DNA of 64,000 bases, from assembly GCA_024137785.1 (NCBI GenBank), contig JAHRHZ010000144.1:36420672-36484671 (forward strand), read 5' to 3'. Below the pieces are notes generated by a model that saw only the letters and a list, made by a program, of their open reading frames with translations, had not been told where the DNA came from and ran no database searches. How positions within the stretch are numbered: position 1 is the stretch's first letter; every line of letters starts with the position of its first letter. The DNA comes from Ginglymostoma cirratum. Its lineage: Eukaryota. Shown in pieces: positions 21,801-57,800 of the stretch. Both the position numbers and the translations under genes were made by a program.

Positions 21801-24800
21801 GTCCCCTGGATAGTTTAAATAGTTACAGTCTGTTGTGAGTGCTGAAATGCATCTTGAAATTTGAAAAGCAATTTTCTTGAGATTAAACAACATACCAATC
21901 TCTTTTGCATTCAAAGCTCGAGTGATCGGTTTACTTAGACCTCTGAAGGATGTGACAGTTACTGCTGGAGATTCAGCTACCTTTGAATGTGAACTATCGT
22001 ATGAAGGAATTGAAGTCCAGTGGTTCTTGAAGGACAAGTTACTTGAACCCAGTGAAAGAGTACGTCGAGGAGTATTTTGTGTCGTTTCAGAATTCTTAAA
22101 ATTCACAGAGAAGTTAATTTTTTTGAGTGATATCTCATTAATATTTCAATGTGATTTACTTGCACAATTACCCTGAGATTTTATACATTATTGCCTCTGG
22201 TGGTTTGCAGTTCCATTTTGGAAATTGTCTGCACCATTTTCAAGAAATGATGAGTCTTTGACTAACTCATTAAATCTAAACTATTGGGCATTACAAATCA
22301 ATAAGGCTGTGCATTAAACAATGTATACTCTGCAGTTTTCACCGTGTGTGGAAAACAGGGATTATTTAAAATAAAATGTTGAAATACAAAAACAAGATGC
22401 TTTAGATGCTAGGAGCTTGAAATAAGAACAAGGAAATATCGAAATATTGACAAGGTTACCAGTAATTGATCTTGTCATATTCATTTTGTGATCCCTTAAG
22501 AACAGCAGCCACTTATAAAATATGTATTAAAATTGACACAGTCTGTGGTGCTGAGCTGGTAATGTTATTAACTGCTATTCTTTGTAATAAGGCAAAACAT
22601 GGCTAATATTCATGAGCTCCATATGAATGTGAGTGGCTGCAGCAGTAAGGAAAGAAAAATACATTAATGGAACTATTAATGCATGATTGCCAAAACCTTG
22701 AATTTGTAAAACCAAACATCACTAACTTAAAAGTCCAAAATAAACTTGTTTTGCTTTCAATTATCCAAACTGTGTCCAAAAATGCAAGGATAAATTTTAG
22801 ATTAAATATGGCATGAGAAATTTAGGAAATCAAAGAATGTGCAGAAATCTAATACAATTTCTTGGTATTTTGGAACAGTTGAAATGTTACAATAGATTTA
22901 CAAATGTTTGATATACTCCCACTTTTTGAAAGTGGAAAGCATAATCAATATCAAAATGTGATTGTTGTTTCAATGAGTTATCTTTTAACTATTTTAAATA
23001 TGATTTACATAGTCAAAGAGTGAATTTGCTAATAATCTAAAACAATTATTTTGGATCAGGTTGTTACTCGTTCTGAAGGCAGAGTGCACACTTTCACCCT
23101 CAGAAATGTCAAATTAGAGGAGGCTGGTGCAGTCAAACTCACTGCTAAAGACTTTGCAACATCTGCTAAACTTATCGTTAAAGGTGCGTGACGTGGCATA
23201 CAAATGAAATATCAGAGTTTTTTCTAAAAAAACTATATTCGACCACATATTTTACAATTGATGTGTTAAATCTTAATTTAAATCTGATGCAGAGCCACCA
23301 GTTGAATTCACTAAACCTCTGGAGGATCAGACAGTTGAAGAAGAAGCCACTGCAGTATTGGAATGTGAGGTGTCCAGAGAAAATGCCAAAGTTACATGGC
23401 TGAAGGATGGAAAAGAAATTCATAAAACTAAGAAATATGAAATGATTGTTGATGGAAGAGTTAGAAAGCTCATTATCCATGATTGCAAGCCTGAAGATGC
23501 TAAAACATATACATGTGATGCCAAAGACTTCAAGACTTCCTGTTTCCTCACAGTGGAACGTAAGTATTTAGTGAACATAAATCAATGGTGTACACTGTTC
23601 GTAACAAAAGCATTCTGCTCCCAAATTATTGATAAATTTGTTGCTAGTTCTCTACCAATAAGATCTTGTTTCTTCCACAGCTCCTCGTGTTGAATTTATA
23701 AAGCCTTTAACTGATCTTGAGGTGAAAGAAAAAGAAGTTGCCAAATTTGTGTGTGAAGTTTCACGTGAAAATGCAAAGGTTTGCTTTTTGCTTATATCAT
23801 TATATTAATTTTATTTTGTTTTAATTTTTCTGTTATGTTGATAATTAAAACCCAATCATTTTTATTTAAGAAAAGTGATGGATTAGATAGCACTACATTC
23901 CTTGCTGAGACCTACATGTTTTCACTTTTAATTCGCTTGATGTATAATGTTGCAATTGGTGGGTCTTCATCCTGAAGGTAATTTCCCCATAGGCTTTCTT
24001 GTAAATTGGTATTTCCCTCACTTTAGGGTCAGAAAATTATGCGGTTTCCAAAATTTCCATTCTTTCAGGGACTGCATGAATGCACAAGGTCACTGATCCT
24101 CATTTCTTCTGCCCATGTGAAGGCTATCAGTGCCAAATTATATATGAAAGATCCCACGTATAGGGCCAGGTCTGTCCTAAACCCAAACAGCCCAGCCAAA
24201 TGCCATCAATGAGCTCCCCAACCCAAAACATCTTTATCCATTCCATTCCATATACCAACTTTAGTACCACACTTCCTACAATAGCCTGGTACTCCCAAAG
24301 TCAGTGTGCATGTTCTGTCGTGATTCATTATCTTTATAACAGCCACGGATTTCAAGGTCTTATACATGAACGCAGGGTATCATCGCCCTGTTTCTATGAC
24401 CATGAGGTACTTGCACTCAAATGTGCCACGTGGTGTTTTTCAAGAGTAGCCAGAAGGTCCTGAAGTTTGTAACCAATGGCACAATTTGAGATTTCTCAAG
24501 GCTGCAGTTGCATTCTGTTTTCCCTATTTGGCTTTCTGATATTGGGCCAGACCAAAACTTGTGAATCCTGTTATCCAGCGCTAGGACTGAAGGAATTCTG
24601 GAAAGTGTTTGTTAATCGTTAAATAACACTGCTCTAGACTGCTCTTTGTTTACACCTGCATAACATTCTACAATGCTCCTCAGAATGTTTTTGTGACTCA
24701 TTCAGTGGAAACACTCCCTGTAAAGCAAGTTTTACATGATTGCTTCCAGGGGTTTAACAAAGAAATCAATATTTGAATTTCTTTAAAATCTACGTGGTTG

Positions 24801-27800
24801 CATCTGTCAGATTGGATGTCCGGTTTAAATTAAACACTTGATAAAGAGAGAAAAAGAAAAAAATCAGTGAAATTCTTACCAGTCCCTACTCCACTCTCAC
24901 AAAACACTCTGAAGTGAATTTGCGAACCCTAGACTTGTAAAACAATCACTGAAAACAGAACAAGAAGAGAAATATTTACCTTGACCCAGTCATTAGGTCA
25001 GGCCAGAATTCAGACAATTCAAACTACCCAGCTTAAACAAAAACATTTTTTTATAAACCTCTGCAAACTCTTGACTAAGTTGGAAGAGGATCAATAATTG
25101 CATCAAAAAATTGTATCAGATGTTGCTGGGCCCAGAGTCCTATCTTTCAGTCCGCATTGTGACTACTTTGTCACCATTCTTGGGTATGTCTTATCATGGT
25201 TATAGAAAAGACAGGCCAGGACAGAGGTTAACAGGAACAGAAGTGTAGTTGTAATGTTACTGGGATGGTAAGAGGCTAGAGTCATGGCCCTGAATTTCCC
25301 CAGAGATGGGTGGTCCCAGTGCCAGAGCAGAAAGTGGAGCCCAAACGTGGGCATTGACCTAGGCACCAGAAATTAAAAGACACACCTTGCATAATGTTTC
25401 TCACTAATTGGGAAAGCTGTTCCACAGTCTTGCCAAGTAACAGTCTGATACAGGCATACACAGAGGGTCATGCGTTACAGCCAATGCCCAAGACTTCTCC
25501 ATTGTTTTCCAGTGATATGCCCTATCCACACCAACAGAGTAGACCCCTTGGAGGTGATGGCACAGTGATGTACAGTACTAAGCAGCCTTAAGGGTCATCA
25601 ATATTGACTCTGAACTGGATGGCATCAGACAATAATAGGCCATGAAACTTCCTGCTGCATCCGAACTTTGGCCTTCCCTCAACTAAAAAAATAGTATTCT
25701 TCCATACGGAACAGCAATTGCCGAATAGGGAAAACAGAATGCAACTGCAGCCTTGAGAAATCTCAAATTGTGCCATTGGTTACAAACTTCAGGACCTTCT
25801 GGCTGCTCTTAGAAAACACCACGAGACACATTTGAGTGCAAGTACCTCATGGACATATCTAGCTAGGATCAAATTAGTGTTTCATGCAAGTTTAACCACA
25901 CGTCCTTGCCTTTTGTATGTTTCACCCCATTGATAAAGTCCAGGACGCTGTACTCTTTATTAACCGTGTATTCAATCTGTCCAGGCACCTTCCCAAGGAT
26001 TTTTGTTCAAATAAACCCAGGTCCCTCTGCTCCTGCACTTTCTTTAATTTGTACTCTATCTTCTCTGTCCATTCTTCCTATCAAAGTGAATAAGCTCATA
26101 CTTCTTTGTTTGGAATTTCCTCTACCATTTGCCCATCCATTCCAAAAATCCTTGTACTTTTGAATTTCTACATGATCCTCACCAAGTTTCAAAGTTTAAC
26201 ATTGACTGCAAATTTTGAAATTGTGTTGCATACACTGAGGTATTCGTCATTTACGCCAAAAGAGCAGGCAGACCTCCTTCCACTCGATTTGATTCATCTG
26301 ATTCTCATTTACCTGCTCATATCCTTCCATTCTTACCACTCTCATTTACTTATCTAGTTTCCTACAACTGCACTTATGTTATTCACATTCTTTGCTGTGT
26401 AGACAGAAGAAATACCTTCCCGTGCATTGGGATTAAACAGAAGAGAGTCTTCTTTGTGCTGTCAAATTCAGTATCAACAATGAAGTATGTTGCACAAAAA
26501 CTGCTCAAATACACTTATTTTTCTACTCATTTGTGGGATGTGGGCATTGCTGGCTGGCCAGCATTTCTTGCCCATCCCTAGCTGCCCTTGAGAAGGTGGT
26601 GGTGAGCTGCCTTCTTGAACTGCTGCAGTCCATCAGCTGTAGGTTGACCCACAATGCCATTAGGGAGGGAATTCCAGGATTTTGACCCAATGACAGTGAA
26701 GGATCGGCAATATATTTCCAAGTCAGGATGGTGAGGGGCTTGGAGGGCAACTTGGAGGTGCTGCCCCTGTCCTTCTAGATGGATGTGGTTACTGGTTTGG
26801 AAGGTGCTGTCTGAGGGTCTTTGGTGAATTTGAGGACCTGATCTGATTCATCTTTGCAAATATGACATCTGACCTTGACTAAAAGTTAACATGACAATTG
26901 CTGTTGCTCTATTAAGGAGATTCCAAGGACATGGGTATTTCTGTTTACACTAGTGTCGCTTTCAGCATAGATATCTAAGGCGCCTACATTAGCTGCTAGA
27001 CTCCAATTCCTCCACTGTCAGATTTATAACAGTTCTTTCTGAGTAAATCTGAAGACAATATCTGTAGCATATTGAACATGCTTCACATGCTCTATAATAA
27101 AAACAGTTGTGCAATAACCCTGAGCAAGACATAATAAATTTTCATTTATTTTAGGTGCGTTGGTTTAAAGATGGTGTTGAAGTAAGAAAAGGTAAAAAAT
27201 ATGACATTGTTGCTAAAGGAGCAGAGAGAATGCTTATCATTCACAAGAGCAGCTTTGATGATGAAGCTGAATACGAATGTGATGCAAGAACAGCTAAAAC
27301 ATCTGGATTGCTTACAGTTTTAGGTAATCAATCGCATGGAGCATAATTGAAATACATTCAGAAATACATTTTTATTTATACATCTGTATTCATATACAAT
27401 GCTTTGTTTTGCAGAAGAGGATGCTTTCTTTACAAAGAACCTGGTAAATGCTGAAGTTATTGAAACAAACAATATTAAATTGATTTGTGAAGTTTCTAAA
27501 CCAAATGCTGAAGTCACTTGGTACAAGGGAGATAAAGAATTGCCTGAAATTGGTCGATATGAACAGCTTACAGATGGCAAAAAACGAATTTTAGTAATTC
27601 AGAACACTAATCCAGATGATGCTGGTGAATATAACTGCAGACTCCGAACTGCTCGGACTTCATGTGAACTTCAAGTTCATGGTATGTAACGTGATCAATT
27701 CTGATATGAGTTTGTTTTTACAGCCAGGCCTTAATGTTATCCAATGTAATTTATCCTCTTAATTTAATTGCAGAGTTGGCACCAGAGTTTATTTCTAGAC

Positions 27801-30800
27801 CACAAAATCTGGAGGTAGTAGAAGGAGACAAAGCAGAGTTTGTCTGTTCAGTATCAAAAGAGGCTTATGAAGTGAAATGGTTTAGAGGTGATAAAGAGCT
27901 GAAATCAGATGATAAATATGAAATCATATCTGATGGCAAAAAGCGAGTGCTCGTTATAAAGGACTCCATACCAAAGGATGAAGGAACTTATGCTGCCATG
28001 GTTGGTACCTCAAGAGCACCAGCAGAACTGACAGTTATTGGTAGGTCGTACAAACTAAATTGTTTGCATATAAAAGCTAGCATGAAAACTGACAGCAAAT
28101 TAAGCATTGTATGCACCCCGTCAAATTACATTGACTCTTGCTGAAAAGAGAGACAAGTTGTCAAATCTATTCATCTTGCACCCATCAGGACAAAAGCAAG
28201 AATGGGGAAGTTTCAAATGGCCATAATAACTAATACCACAGAAGAAAAGGAACTCCTGTACATAAAGATTTTAACTCCTGTCATATCACAAAATTGTTAT
28301 GGCCATTCAGCCCATCATGCCTGCACTGGATCTTTAACCTAGCCCCAATCCCCTGATGTTTTTCCCTCATACCCATACATTCTATTTCTGTCCAAATAAT
28401 CACCTTGCAAAAGGTAGAACGGTAATGTCTGGGATGGTTGACATTGCTGCCAGTTCATTAGCTCCACCAAGTCTCCTGCTGAGTTGCTTAGACATTTGTC
28501 CAAAACAGGCTGAAGTAACCATTTCCGATGGGGATTGGTTAATTCAGTTAGCTAGATGGCTGGTAATTAGTTTAGAAAAATACCAACAACGTGGGTTCCA
28601 TTTCCATTCCTCTGGTGGTAGACTTGGAACCTGCCTCATCACCCGGTCCCTGATAATGAAAGGAAACGGCAAGCCACCACTGACAAAAAGCGCCATAAGA
28701 TTGGCTCAGGATAAAGCATCAGCAGATGAGCTCAGGGCTTCGTTTTGGCAGAGCAATCACGTCAGGACAATTTCACACACAGAATTATAATTTAATTTCA
28801 CTGCCTGAAGGGCAGTATTGTGAAGCACACTCTGCTCAATTTTCTCTGCAGCCTAGCAAAAGATGGCCAGGACATATTTTAGTCATACTCCTGTAGCTAC
28901 ACATAACCCAACCCCTCCCCTCGACATTTCTCTACACCCTGGCCAACTTGTTCCCGGCTGGATTGTTAACAGACCGAGTGCCCAAACCTTGTGATCTGCA
29001 GTGGGATAGCTATTTAGGGTTTTCTATAATCACTGTATACATCTTAATAAAATTGAGTCCTGGAAGTGAACACAATCAGATTCATGTAGATGTTTACAAC
29101 ACAGGGGGAGGCCATTCAGCCCATGGTATCTGTGCTGATCAGCAAAGACCTGATTACACTAATCTCATTTTCCAGCTCTCAGCCCACAGCGCTGAAGGCA
29201 GTGGCAATGTAAGCGAATATCACAATACTGCTGGCCAGACAATTTTTATATTTGGTCATGGGTATCGCTGGCTGGACCAGCATTTATTGCCCATCCCTCA
29301 CTGCCCTATTTGAAGAAGGTGGTGAGCTGCTTTCTTTAACTGCTATGGGCCTTGCATTGTCGGGATGTCCATAGCGCCATTAGGAAAGGAATTTCAGGAT
29401 TTTGACCTAACTACAGTCAACTGCAAGGTTTCTGAAATCTTCTTCAATGTAAAACTTCCAGCTTTGTGGAAGTATTCTTTAAGGTGTTCTTTCCCCTTCA
29501 TTGCCTTGTGAATAATTCAAGATATGCAAACATCTAGCAAGCATGTCTGTTTTAATTTTAACCAAAAGAGCTGCGGATGCTGGAAATCAGAAGCAAAAAC
29601 CGAAATTGCTGGAAAAACTCAGCAGGTCTGCCAGCATCTGTGGAGAGAAATCAGAGTTAACGTTTTGGATCCAGTGATCCTTCCACAGAACTCAGTTGCA
29701 TCCAAAGATGCTGCCAGACCTGCTGAGCTTTTCCAGCATTTTCGGTTTTTGTTTCTGTTTCTGCAAATGGGAATTAATGGGTTAAGGTAAGCAGGAGGTT
29801 TCTTGTCATGTTTTTTTTATTGTATTTGGTATTGAAAATTAATTTCAGTTTTGAATATGACCCATCCTAGCCCATGTTGGGAAATATCACTTCGATTACT
29901 AATGTGACTTACCCTTAATGTTAACATTGAGGGAATAATTGCTTTTTACAAGTAGGTAACTACATGTAAATATATTTAAACTGAAACTTATTGTTCTGAA
30001 TAAACTTGTTTTCTTTCTCAGAACGTCTTAGGATAATAACTCCTATCAAAGACCAGGTAGCCACAGAAGGACAAGAAATTGTATTTAATTGTGAAGTGAA
30101 CACCGAAGGTGCCAGAGCCAAGTGGTTTAAAAATGAAGAAACTATCTTTGATAGTCCAAAATATATTATGCTCCAGAAAGATTTAGTCTTTACTCTCAGA
30201 ATCAGAAATTCACTGAACGATGATCAAGGAAAGTACACCATTGCACTCACAAATAATAGAGGAGAACATGCACAATGTTCAGCAACATTACAAATAGAAG
30301 GTAAATACTTTTCCTTGAATGTTAGGCAGCTGTACAAACATAGTGCAAGTAAAGTGGTGTAAATATTTTCCTCTTTTCTTCTAATTTAACCAGAGGAAGA
30401 ACTGAAAATCATTGAGCCTCTTGAAGATTGTGAAACAATGGAGAAGAAGTCTGTCACCTTCTGCTGCAAAGTGAACCGTGAAAATGCGACCTTAAAATGG
30501 ATGAAAAATGGGGAAGAAATTACATTGGACAAACGATTTCTGTACAAAATTGACAAGAGAAAGCATTCTCTTCTAATTAGAAACTGCACATTCAAAGACG
30601 AAGGCGAATACACTGTAATTGCTGGAAAAGACAAATCAGTTGCAGAACTTCTTATCACAGAAGCACCAACAGATTTCATCGAACATATTCAAGATCAGAC
30701 TGTAATTGAGTTTGAAGATGCTATCTTTGAATGTCAATTATCGAAAGAAAAGGCTGCAGTAAAATGGTACAGGAATGGCAGAGAACTCAGAGAAAACAAA

Positions 30801-51800: not shown

Positions 51801-54800
51801 GAGAAAGGATGCAAAAATGCATTCCTGGAGACAACCGATGGAGACAGAAAAATCTAAGTGTGACATTGTTGGTCTTCTTGAAGGACAGGAATATATGTTC
51901 CGTATTTGTGCTAAAAACAAGTATGGCTGTGGTCCTGCTTCTACGCTTGGACCTATAGCTGCAGTTGATCCCTTAGGTAAGATATGAGGTGAACAGAAGA
52001 ACTAAATAATTTCTGTGCATGTGTGTCACATGTTTGAATTGAAAATGTGTTTTAATTATAGGCCCACCAACGTCGCCTGAGAAATTTACATGCACAGAAA
52101 GGACAAAGTCAACAGTCACACTTACTTGGAAACCTCCACGAAATGATGGTGGTCGCCCTGTTTTGGGATACTTTGTTGAAAAGAAGAAACATGACCAGCC
52201 TACGTTTGAGAGAGCTAACCAAGTGATCTGTCCAGATACAACTTTTGTGGTTGAGGATCTAGAAGACCTAAACATGTATGATTTCCGTGTCAGAGCTGTC
52301 AATGAAATTGGAGAAAGTGAACCGTCAATTACTCTTAATGTAATAGTGCAAGATGATGAAGGTAGATGCACTTGTTTAATGGTTTTGGCTTGTGCTCCTA
52401 TATCTTTGTGTTAAAAATATAAGTTTTTCTTCCAAACTTTCATAATTTTGCAACATCTTTATTCTTGTTTGAATTGCTTTTTGTTCCAACAGTGCCTCCA
52501 ATTGTAAGACTACGGCTGAAAGTTAAGAAAAGTGTTATTGCTGTGAAAGCTGGTGAGCCAATTGACATTCCAGCTGAGGTGGAAGGCCTTCCTTTCCCCA
52601 AAATTGAATGGAGTAAAGGTGAAACAGTCATAGAAAAACCAACTGACCGACAGAAGATAGAAACTAAAGTCACTTCAAGATCAACTGGAGATACTAAGTT
52701 CAGTATTCCTGTAGCTGTTCGTCAGGATACAAATACTTACACTGTTACTGCTTCAAACCGCCTTGGAACAGCATCCCAATCTGTGGATGTTAATGTTCTA
52801 GGTGAGAAAGTGAAACAAATGCAACAAAGAATTTGAGAGAATATTATGAAGCTTGTATAAGAAACTCTGAAAAAGTGACTGTGTCAATTTAAATATTGAT
52901 TAATGGTGAACTTTATTTTTAACTTTAGATAAGCCTTCACCACCAAGAAATGTTAAAGTTTCTGATATCAAAGCAGAATCCTGCTATCTAACGTGGGATG
53001 CTCCTGAGGACAATGGTGGCAGTGAAATAACTAACTATATTGTTGATAAGCGTGATGCAAGCAAGAAGAAATCTGAATGGGAGGAGATCACAAATTATAT
53101 TATTGAAAGACGATATGGCGTAATGTCTCTTTTTCACATTATTTCACTAAGTCAATGTTTTCACAATCTATCTAAATGCATTTAGTAGATGTCGTTTGTG
53201 TAACCAAGTTTTCTTCTGCTTAGGTATGGAAACTGACGACTGATGGACAATATCAGTTTAGAGTTAGAGCAGAAAACAAGTATGGAATTAGTGACGGCTG
53301 TATGTCTGATAAAGTGACAATCAAAGATCCATTTGGCCTTCCAGGACCACCAAGTAAACCAAAAGTGTCTGATATTACAAGGTCATCAATGCTTGTATCT
53401 TGGGAGCCACCACTGGACAATGGTGGTTCTCCAATCACAGGCTACTATATTGAAAAGAGAGAGGTTGGTGGCGTGTATTGGTCACGTGTCAACAGAGCTC
53501 CTGTGACAAAGCCAGCTGTAAGGGGCCAAAACTTCAATGTTCTTCGCTTGCTGGAAGGTGTTGAGTATCAGTTCAGAGTCATGGCTGTAAATGCAGCTGG
53601 AGTTGGACCACCTAGTGAACCTTCTGACCCTGCTTTGGCAAGTGATCCTAAATGTAAGTTTAATTTCTCTAAGGTTTTGGAGTAGATTTGTAGCTCGGGT
53701 TGTGGGTGTTGAGGTTGGTTGGCTCGCCAAGTTGGTTTGTTGTTCTGCAGACCTTTCGTTACCGTGCTTGGTAACATCCTCAGTGCAGCCTCTGATGAAG
53801 CGTTGGTGTGTTTTCCTGCCTGGTTTTTAAACTCTGGGGTCCGTTGAGATGGATTGCCTCACTTCCGGGTTTCCTCCGTAATGGAATGTATATGGGGTCA
53901 AGTTCAATGTGTTTATTAATAGCCTGCTTCGTGGAGTGCCATGCTTCCAGGAATTCTCGTACCTGTCTCTGCCTAGCCTGTCCCAGGATCTTGGTGTTGT
54001 CCCAGTCGAAGTGGTGGTTCTCCTTGTCCATTTGGATTGAGATGAATGAGTACTGTTCGTGTCTTTTTGTAGCCAGTTGGTTTTCATGTACTCTTGTTTT
54101 TAGTTTCCTTCCTGTTTAATTAACAACAAGAGTACATGAACGCCAACTGGCTATAAAAAGACACAACCAATACTCACTCATTTCAATCCACATGGACAAG
54201 GAGAACCACCATTTCGACTGGATAACACCCAGATCCTGGGACAGGCTAGGCAGAGACAAGCACGAGAATTCCTGGAAGCATGGCACTCCACGAAGCAGGC
54301 TATTAATAAACACATTAAACTCAACCCCATATACATTCCACTACGGAGGAAACCCGGAAGTGAGGCAATCCATCGCAACGGACACCAGAGTTTAAAAACC
54401 AGGCAGGAAACCACACCAATGCTTCATCAGAGGCTGCACTGAGGATGTTACCCAGCATGGTGGCGAAACATCTGCGGAACAACAAACCAGCTCGGCGAGC
54501 CAACCAACCTCAACAAGTTTAATTTCTGGATATATACCTTCTTCATCTCAGTTAAAGAAATAACATTGATTAAAATGCTTACTAAAATAAATCTCCAAAA
54601 ATAACCTACAAACATTGATGAATATGATAATATTTGAACTAACTTAAGCAAGATAAAGTTTGCAAAATCGTAAAATGTTTTTGATGTTTCATTTTTCTGC
54701 TAAAGGCAAAGAAATAGCAAAAAAGGCAATACTGTAGAAAATACGGTAGATTAACATAAATATGACTTTTTTTTCCCTGAAGATCCACCAAGTGCTCCAT

Positions 54801-57800
54801 CCTGTCCTGAAGTCACTGACAAAACTAAGAATACAATATCGCTTAAATGGAAACGCCCAGAGAAAGATGGGCATAGCCCAATTCAAGGCTATATTGTTGA
54901 GATGCAAGAGGAGGGTTCACCTGATTGGACAAGAGCATCAGATCCAGATAAACTGCTTCCTAACTGTGAATATGTGGTGCCCAACTTACAGGCACTCAGA
55001 AAGTACAAGTTCCGTATTAAAGCTGTTAATGCTGCAGGAGAATCTGAACCAAGTTTACCAACTTCAGAAATAATTATGAAGGAAATCCTAGGTATGTGCC
55101 TCTAAGTTTAGAATGAAAGAATGTTGGAACCCAATTTTGGAAAGTTAAAGCTAACATATTTTTGATCATAATTTGCAGAGGAACCAGCTGTAACATTGGA
55201 GGTTGGTGCACAAGATCTCCTCAATTGCCTTGCCGGTACACCTTTGAGAATTCCAGCCATTGTCACAGGCCGTCCTACTCCAAAGATTAATTGGGAATTT
55301 GAAGGACAAGCTAAGACAGTGCTGAAGGTATGAAATATTTTAATCGTATGTAGCTATGCATTGTCAGCTGCAAGGCAGGAATCCTTGATGCTATCCAAAT
55401 TCAAGATATCTGTAGGTTCATGAGAAGCTCAAAGGCTGGGCATTCTGTGGTACTAATGCATCACCTGATTTCCCAAAGCCTAAACCTCCATCTACAGGGC
55501 ATAAGTCAAGAATGTGCTGGATCAGTCTCCAATTGCTCAGCTGAGTGCAGCTCTAAGAGCACTCAAAAAATTTCAGCCTCACCCACCCCATCCACCACTT
55601 TCAACATTGATTTTCCCATGCAGCAATGCACAGTGGTAACTGTGTGGTACCACTGTTACCACCTATAGTATGTACTGCATCAATTCACCAAGGTTCCTTC
55701 AACAGCGTCTCTGAAACCCATGACCCAAGCCATCTAGAATGACCAGGACAGTATATACGTAGAAACACTACCATCTGCAAGTTCCCTCCCAGGAAGCACA
55801 CTGCCCTGATTTGGAGCTGTATCCCCATGCCTTTACTGTCACTGGTCAAAATCATAGGACTGCCTCCCTAACATGACTATGAATGTACCAACAACAAATG
55901 GACAGCAGCGGTCCAAGAGGGTGCTTCACTATCACTTCACTATCTCCAGGACAATTAGGACGAGTAATAAATGCTGGCCTAGCCAGTGATGTCCATATCT
56001 TATGAAGTGATTTTTTAAAAGTTGAGTTTAGACCAAAATTAGATCGAAATAAAATGGAACCAATTTACAAGCATGAAACAAATCATTCAGCAATTATCAT
56101 AGTCTTTCCTTAAAAAAAAGGATTTAGCAGATTTTGTAACATTTTATATTTTAATGTTTTGTTTAGGATGAAGTACATAAACTCCCAGCTGATGCCAAGG
56201 TAATAATGTGGACCATAATTCTTTTGAAGTATTGCATTTGAAAGTTTGGAAAGTTAAAGTTGAATTTGCATTTTATTTGCTGTTTATTAATTTATCTTTT
56301 TCTCTTTTGTAGGTCGAAGGTACTGAAACTAAAACAGATGTGCTTATTCCAGCATGTAATAGAAGCCACTCTGGTCGCTACAGCATTACTGCAAAGAACA
56401 AAGCTGGGCAAAAGACAGCGCATGTCAGAGTAAATGTTCTTGGTATGTCACTCTTTTATTAGAATGTATTTGAAAAAGATTCTTTGTAATGGTTTAACGT
56501 GATTATTAAATTTGTTACCATCATGTTTTACAGATATGCCAGGACCACCAAAAGATCTCAAAGTAAGTGACATTACAAGAGGCACTTGCAGGCTTTCATG
56601 GAAACCCCCAGACAATGATGGTGGAGATAGAATTAAGAGTTACGTTGTGGAGAAAAAGACTGTGGAAGGAAAGGCATGGGTCAAAGCTAATGCTGCCTGT
56701 GCAGGCACATCATTTCTTGTGCCTGATCTTATTGAAGGGCAGGAGTACTTCTTCCGTGTCCGCGCAGAAAACCGATTTGGTATTGGTGCACCAGTAGAAA
56801 CGATCCAGAGGACCAAGGCTCGAGATCCAATCCGTAAGTTAATCATTGAAAAACATATCCTTGTCCAATTCAGAGGCAGGAAGATTCATTTTAGTGATTA
56901 TATTTTTCATTTAAAAATTGCTTTCTGACATTTCAGACCCCCCTGAGCCTCCAACAAAACTAAGAGTTGGATTAGTGACTAAGAATTCCGTTTCGCTTAC
57001 TTGGAAGCCACCAAAGACAGATGGAGGGGCTCCAGTAACACACTACATTATTGAAAGTCTTTACTTGGATCCTACTGGAGAAAAGAAGGAAGGCTGGAAG
57101 CAGTGCAATAGGCGAGATGTGGAAGAAACCAAGTTTACCGTGGAAGATCTCATTGAGGGTGGGCAGTATGAATTCCGTGTGAAAGCTGTTAATGAAGCTG
57201 GTGCCAGTAAACCATGTAATTCTGTTGGACCCATTGACGTGAAAGATCAAACATGTAAGTCCCAACAGAAACTGTATCATAACTCACCAATTTAACAATT
57301 GAAAATATTAAATCAAAACCGAACTAAAACATCCTGAATATTCCCTTCTGTAGGTCCACCTGAAATTGATCTTAAGGAATTCTTAGAGGCAGAACAAAAT
57401 ACAGACATCAGCATTGTAGCCAAAGTCAAGGGCACACCATTCCCAACTTTGACATGGTACAAAGCACCTGTCCAAAAGCCAGAGGACAAATCTAAAGTAG
57501 AATATGATCAACATGTCAACAAAATTGTGTCGGAGGATGGTTGCACTCTATTAATTCGTCAGTCCCTCCGAAAGGACACTGGTCTTTACACGCTCACTGC
57601 AACAAACAATTTGGGAACTGCTTCTAAGGAAATGAGACTCAACGTTCTGGGTAATCTTTTGTATAATTTGACTGTTTTGATTTCTAATTTTGACAATCCA
57701 ATGACGTGCATTCCTTTCATTTGCTATACTGAATGTAATTGAGAATATTCATATTTTGACTTATTTTAATACTTAGGTCGTCCTGGTCCTCCAGTTGGTC

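Follow-up and report, generated by a model that had tools for sequence, protein, structure and literature searches.

An intron of the titin gene of Ginglymostoma cirratum contains an 846-bp insertion that is very probably an old, 5'-truncated copy of an abundant Penelope/Poseidon-type element, arranged as a pair of 3' ends facing head to head, only one of which bears a tail, flanked by a 13-bp target-site duplication (TSD), and left to likely neutral decay. It occupies positions 53669-54514 of the window, by which we mean the whole 64-kb stretch of DNA analyzed. Exon translations and phmmer searches identified the host gene of this window as part of vertebrate titin, with translated exons running from PEVK-like and Ig segments through the I/A junction into the A-band. 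The exon upstream of the insertion (53224-53653, + strand) encodes the end of Fn3 domain A12 followed by an Fn3 domain whose best phmmer matches were titin chains and which we take to be A13, from the number of Ig and Fn3 domains that follow the I/A junction under the usual numbering convention. An intact splice donor, GTAAGT (53654-53659, +), opens an intron of 1129 nt (53654-54782), of which 270 nt remain once the insertion and one copy of the TSD are subtracted. It is followed by the exon for Fn3 A14 (54783-55091, +), in frame with the upstream exon across a codon split into T and AT. The insertion begins at intron position +16, 15 nt into the intron, as a preliminary description of the locus had proposed. 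Donor and acceptor sequences are both intact and the A13 and A14 exons join in frame; we infer normal splicing and absence of cleavage at this locus.

A direct-repeat search delimited the insertion by two 100% identical 13-bp copies of AAGTTTAATTTCT (53656-53668 and 54515-54527, both +), the left one overlapping positions +3 to +6 of the donor, which agrees with the TSD described earlier. Within these borders, 53707-54105 pairs with 54118-54515 as inverted repeats, 365 of 398 aligned columns being identical. The left arm (53669-54117, -) is a 5'-truncated 3' end of the element lying antisense to titin and matches the family copy L009 at 92.9% over 449 nt, while the right arm (54118-54514, +), in titin sense and tailless, matches the same copy at 93.2% over 397 nt. 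The left arm alone carries the 39-nt Penelope 'tail' (53669-53707, -), which matches the longer of the two 3' ends seen elsewhere in the family. The arms meet at the head-to-head junction TTAATTAA (54116-54123), their 5' break points lying 12 nt apart in element coordinates. The inverted arrangement of two similar arms of ~390 bp was thus correctly recognized in the preliminary description, but its arm borders were displaced and the tail was overlooked. Its spacer of ~26 nt must also be revised: the loop between the arms comprises 12 nt, the extra 5' stretch of the left arm, and since this is element sequence there is no foreign spacer.

Translations placed the start of both arms directly downstream of the GIY/YIG motif, so that only the C-terminal part of the endonuclease is left. 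The left arm retains a remnant reading frame of 111 codons for this part (53783-54115, -), whereas the right arm, with a single 1-nt deletion near 54220, is frameshifted. The earlier view that each arm encodes a GIY-YIG-type C-terminus therefore stands for the endonuclease C-terminal part but not for an intact frame in the right arm or for the GIY/YIG motif itself, which is absent. Searched against Pfam, the 111-residue remnant returned only an unrelated sub-threshold match. The stop codon of the endonuclease frame coincides with the UGA of the hammerhead core CUGAGGA (53780-53782, -, and 54440-54442, +), as it does in the translated family copies.

Contigs of four public sequencing runs were compared with window positions 52900-55330. 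For organism A (runs X7 and X10) and organism B (run X11), single-copy left-flank contigs reach 25-27 letters into the antisense tail, and right-flank contigs carry 54 (X7), 43 (X10) and 26 (X11) element-side letters. Divergence of the flank contigs of both organisms from the window amounts to 2.3-4.9% (X7, 18/794 and 20/838; X11, 28/793 and 41/845). As the contigs of both organisms enter the element from both flanks, the insertion probably predates these splits and the inversion is probably not an assembly error. An artefact would be compatible with the fact that none of the contig pieces listed bridges the central junction or the whole insertion, and with left-junction overlaps below the 31-letter bar of the comparison. 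It is nevertheless highly unlikely, given that the arms differ at 33 columns plus a deletion, the TSD is exact, a single arm bears the tail, which holds for all 30 other classifiable loci, and contigs from three runs enter the antisense tail, with 43-54 letters of the element also present in right-flank contigs of two of these runs (X7 and X10). Among the 15 joints listed (129 further joints existed), none belonged to a contig that skips the insertion. The insertion is thus probably old and genuine. Contigs from the fourth run, X20, which we guess to be RNA, covered the repeat only (11 of 30 bins) and no titin exon, and the rows of A>G differences over the repeat stem from copies of the family at other loci. 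The repeat also had a summed contig depth far above that of the flanks, a value that is not a copy number.

For a family-wide comparison, we searched the 4.36-Gb genome with three parts of the insertion, obtaining at least 6866, at least 3804 and at least 4163 first-look candidates. For each search, 40 candidates were scored and 30 fetched, and removal of 14 duplicates left 76 unique loci. These are the best BLAST matches, and the compared set is for this reason biased toward young copies. Three longer copies (L005, L009 and L020) contain a single frame with a reverse transcriptase (RT; YVDD/YIDD) followed by IYKIPC..HY(I/V)xQT. The RT part of L020 matched PF00078 above cut-off (E = 1.1e-7), and the endonuclease part of L006 fell into GIY-YIG atlas clusters (top matches 0.94), the family being found in 18-28% of the members of the top three clusters. 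Neither of two endonuclease-bearing sequences (P0001 and the C-terminal part of L020) matched the Pfam GIY-YIG models. Inspection of L005 and L020 by eye revealed no CxxC cluster or Cys zinc-finger-like linker between the RT thumb and the IYKIPC motif. According to the accessible text of PMC8557442, an extra Cys linker between RT and endonuclease separates Neptune/Nematis from Penelope/Poseidon; by this criterion, its absence points to the Penelope/Poseidon clade for the element in titin, an assignment that reflects a missing motif rather than a phylogeny. The family thus displays the characteristics of EN+ Penelope-like elements, namely RT followed by GIY-YIG, a truncated copy in inverted orientation that bears a 30-40-nt tail at one end and is flanked by a short TSD, and a hammerhead in the terminal repeat, in line with the earlier designation of the insertion as Penelope.

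The layout seen in titin is the norm in this sample and nothing singles out the titin copy. Head-to-head arms were present in 46 of the 76 loci and missing from 23, while in seven the 5' end lay beyond reach, consistent with the earlier remark that Penelope-like elements often form inverted partial copies. Family copies terminate at two 3' sites, 39-40 nt apart, and all 31 inverted loci in which both 3' ends could be classified, titin included, combine one tailed with one tailless arm. For the remaining 15 inverted loci, one end lay elsewhere or was cut by the locus edge; arms were paired with a tolerance of 450 nt, and a few of these 15 may be wrongly paired. Among 30 inverted loci with both ends in view, exact flanking repeats measured 9-17 nt in 21 and 7 nt in two, and none was found in seven.

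Much of this architecture is already known in print. The available portions of PMC8557442 describe an inverted 5'-truncated copy with a 30-40-bp tail often at one end only, and those of PMC3846280 report, for Pen2a_Av, an inverted pLTR, a tail, TSDs of 8-10 bp and junction palindromes interpreted as self-priming. With these EN+ insertions, as far as those portions describe them, the titin copy shares the head-to-head copy, the one-end tail (39 nt), the short TSD (13 bp), the 5' truncation and the junction palindrome. It differs in consisting of two truncated 3' ends only, lacking the full frame and a direct pLTR, and in having nearly coincident 5' break points (12 nt), as in a minority of the family's loci. 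For the Poseidon element PAc of Anolis carolinensis, the accessible part of PMC11167929 reports two RT start sites that bound the tail in vitro and nicking of both strands at AT-rich DNA. PAc and the present family both have RT followed by a C-terminal GIY-YIG domain and a terminal-repeat hammerhead; in both, an AC-rich tail is delimited by two discrete 3' ends and the target is AT-rich (ATT in the TSD). In this comparison, made by description rather than by sequence, the titin copy differs as a dead fragment and in that the core UGA doubles as the endonuclease stop. Separately, three loci (L033, L034 and L041) contain inverted pieces that terminate on their outer side close to the 5' end of the main arm, not at the element 3' end, a geometry expected from L1-style twin priming on one RNA.

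Variants shared between arms bear on how the mirror image arose. In 35 other arm pairs, 63 non-CpG variants were common to both arms, compared to ~9 expected from random copies; 42 of these (3.9 expected) occurred in the seven pairs with break points within 30 nt and 21 (4.9 expected) in the other 28, and 53 of the 63 were also present at other loci. Such sharing suggests that both arms mostly derive from one template or one source copy, and later gene conversion between arms could likewise be a source of it. In 22 simple pairs besides titin, break points lay within 30 nt of each other in five (1.2 expected, p = 0.006) and within 15 nt in three (p = 0.036), both thresholds having been chosen after seeing the data, and the remaining pairs differed by 239-1118 nt. 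With its offset of 12 nt, titin is the sixth case within 30 nt.

We propose that the element endonuclease would make staggered nicks 13 bp apart at an AT-rich site, that DNA synthesis would start once at the tail end and once ~39 nt inside, and that the two products would be joined head to head. In the simplest model, synthesis would proceed from both nicks, one per start site, while the symmetric class may form by a second route, through fold-back of the first strand or through a single broken RNA being copied twice. The present data do not discriminate between these routes in the case of titin. L1-type twin priming does not fit this copy and was rejected, because both arms cover the same sequence. 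We tentatively regard the insertion, while leaving slightly more room for doubt than for assent, as one of probably thousands of two-ended integrations in which one complex nicks both strands and primes at both tail-bounding sites on the same template, with the subset of nearly matching break points produced by fold-back or two passes. Two-ended integration would explain both the 31 of 31 one-tail pairs and the excess of shared variants. The part of PMC11167929 available to us describes the way in which Penelope-like elements finish integration as not yet validated.

A scan for minimal hammerheads across the 64-kb window yielded two matches, one per arm and strand, at 53745-53788 (-), antisense to titin, and at 54434-54477 (+), in titin sense with a nominal cut site at 54472/54473. 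Both arms retain CUGAGGA, a 6-bp stem II, GAAA, UC and a 5-bp stem I, so the CUGANGA..GAAA..UC core reported previously for each arm was recovered. Alignment to the family showed that C15.2 has changed to G in the antisense motif and G16.2 to A in the sense motif, in which two stem II A-U pairs are now G-U. Positions 15.2/16.2 read G/G in the left and C/A in the right arm as opposed to C/G in the family, and the palindrome at 15.1-16.1 has become AGGU (antisense) and ACAU (sense) as opposed to the family majority ACGU. Self-duplex energies were +2.0 and +2.8 kcal/mol for the antisense and sense motifs, respectively, compared to -3.1 kcal/mol for the intact L003 and L030. Decay is widespread in the family: of 110 motif copies, 56 retain ACGT and 34 are intact throughout. 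An Rfam scan (E<=10) gave 13 matches, none at gathering score and none to a hammerhead family; the microRNA-precursor matches reflect hairpin shape alone.

Both motifs resemble the minimal type I hammerheads of metazoan Penelope-like elements, as portrayed in the accessible sections of PMC4209133, in their core, the extra base between 9 and 10.1, the G10.1-C11.1 pair, the long stem II (6 bp), the 5-bp stem I and the lack of loop III. Those sections state that such motifs, lacking their own helix III, depend on the palindrome for pairing with another copy, that single minimal hammerheads showed no cleavage in vitro and dimers little, and that opposite-strand pairs occur 100-700 bp apart. Unlike members of that class, both titin motifs lack the palindromic 15.2-16.2 pair required for dimer function; neither has a palindromic A15.1-N15.2-N16.2-U16.1 for a dimer helix III. 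In fold predictions, stem II of the sense motif formed with a probability of 0.016-0.019 in a 66-nt piece and ~0.002 in the right arm alone, failing even in isolation because the G-to-A change favors another, wrong helix. In Anolis, cleavage by the Poseidon motif required the protein of the element, and RNA ends were not detected at the cut site, according to the accessible part of PMC11167929. The antisense motif is absent from titin RNA. On the basis of sequence and fold predictions, both titin hammerheads are likely inactive, and we do not uphold the earlier expectation that an active ribozyme would otherwise cut the intron.

An observation on the same motif concerns an A/C site in hammerhead loop II (L009 column 1837, window position 54453), which is C in 22 other loci and not clearly linked to other variable columns. 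It differs between arms in seven of the 11 pairs carrying C (one of the seven being C/G) and might be a copying-error hot spot.

Computational folding of the insertion, a check suggested in the preliminary description, predicted one long stem of ~400 bp (-718.6 kcal/mol, z = -52.9 against 20 shuffles). Within the whole insertion, stems I and II of the sense motif had a predicted probability of 0.0, in agreement with the earlier proposal that titin pre-mRNA would fold into a long hairpin sequestering this motif. The hairpin would bury the motif, yet there is probably nothing active to bury. It could be argued that the sense ribozyme is active and that the antisense arm is kept as a shield against cutting of titin pre-mRNA, since the core is present, stems I and II are still able to pair and the long hairpin is predicted to abolish the hammerhead fold. 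We consider this extremely improbable in view of the lost dimer palindrome, the low stem II probability in isolation, the inactivity or protein dependence of comparable motifs in the accessible parts of PMC4209133 and PMC11167929, and the fact that the antisense arm is a normal insertion product.

Arm divergence bears on whether pairing has been selected. Each arm differs by 4.5-5.3% from the family majority; C>T and G>A changes predominate, and the spectrum is led by CpG sites, as it is in the family. The arms differ from each other by 8.3%, and either arm differs from copies elsewhere by 7.4%. Among 23 variable columns, no non-CpG variant is common to both titin arms (0.3 expected), giving no sign of arm homogenisation, while three CpG-classed columns are shared (1.6 expected), one of them a G>C present in 11 other loci. 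This pattern fits a common template followed by independent decay. Read on the titin strand, the arms form 12 G-U and 11 A-C mismatches (p = 1.0), and there is no bias toward retained pairing between the arms. Editing of the template before insertion was also considered and rejected, as A>G accounts for 3 of 22 changes in the right arm compared to 143 of 1068 in the family.

The predicted stem extends from intron position +54 to ~270 nt before the acceptor AG, and owing to this position the hairpin would loop out and be removed with the intron. Bystander editing of the hairpin may occur, and neither ribozyme motif would cut. Splice-site scores, computed with rough matrices of approximate values from general knowledge, were 4.9 and 4.5 for two acceptor-like AGs in the left arm (53749 and 54071), 5.9 for the true acceptor, and 3.8 and 5.25 for AGs of host origin within this intron. 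In the fold model, the AG at 53749 is fully paired and the donor is partly paired with the tail region (predicted mean, 0.6). The donor pairing and the two extra AGs are a counterpoint to a silent insertion, and its seeming retention in at least two other labelled organisms is one to neutrality, which allows such retention but does not require it.

In other animals, ADAR acts on long inverted repeats within introns, and action of ADAR or Dicer on the titin hairpin is plausible. Intronic inverted Alu pairs similarly consist of two near-identical, oppositely oriented retroelement pieces in one intron; the titin arms differ from them in abutting each other and stemming from one insertion event. 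The hairpin could be edited or diced, or it could alter donor use or mask cryptic acceptors introduced by the antisense arm and so tune A13-A14 splicing, a role for which the length and stability of the stem, the paired AG at 53749 and the partly paired donor could be cited. We nonetheless judge a host effect improbable: the mismatches show no pairing bias, the arms are not homogenised, acceptor-like scores are common, as the host AGs show, inverted insertions are the majority in the family sample, and bystander editing does not equal function. Neutral decay of an ordinary insertion is the reading we retain.

Two other repeats were observed in the window. A palindromic stub from a different repeat family (29585-29760, 76% self-complementary) lies farther upstream, also within a titin intron; a decayed hammerhead-like motif can be recognized by eye on its minus strand but did not pass the motif scan, and the stub is probably another inverted Penelope-type end. 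Inverted repeats of 138 bp (24395-24532 and 25720-25857, 95% identical) surround ~1.2 kb with no clear reading frame and, by motif scan, no hammerhead; they could be DNA transposon ends or another inverted insertion.

A literature search combining titin, Penelope, intron and hammerhead gave none with both titin and Penelope among the 10 of 36 matches listed, and one combining Penelope, A-to-I, inverted repeat and intron listed only a human transposon review. The head-to-head, one-tailed layout is itself already described in the accessible text of PMC8557442 and PMC3846280. The titin feature in its own right matters little, being a single decayed copy, without signs of selection, of an element that is very common. 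Were editing or altered splicing to be seen in muscle RNA, the locus would represent an intronic hairpin built by Penelope and acting in a giant muscle gene as inverted Alus do. The family statistics, comprising the one-tail rule, the shared arm variants and the two junction classes, provide a usable genomic test of how Penelope-like elements complete integration; if the two-ended reading is true, this genome would allow the second-strand step of Penelope transposition to be tested by counting.
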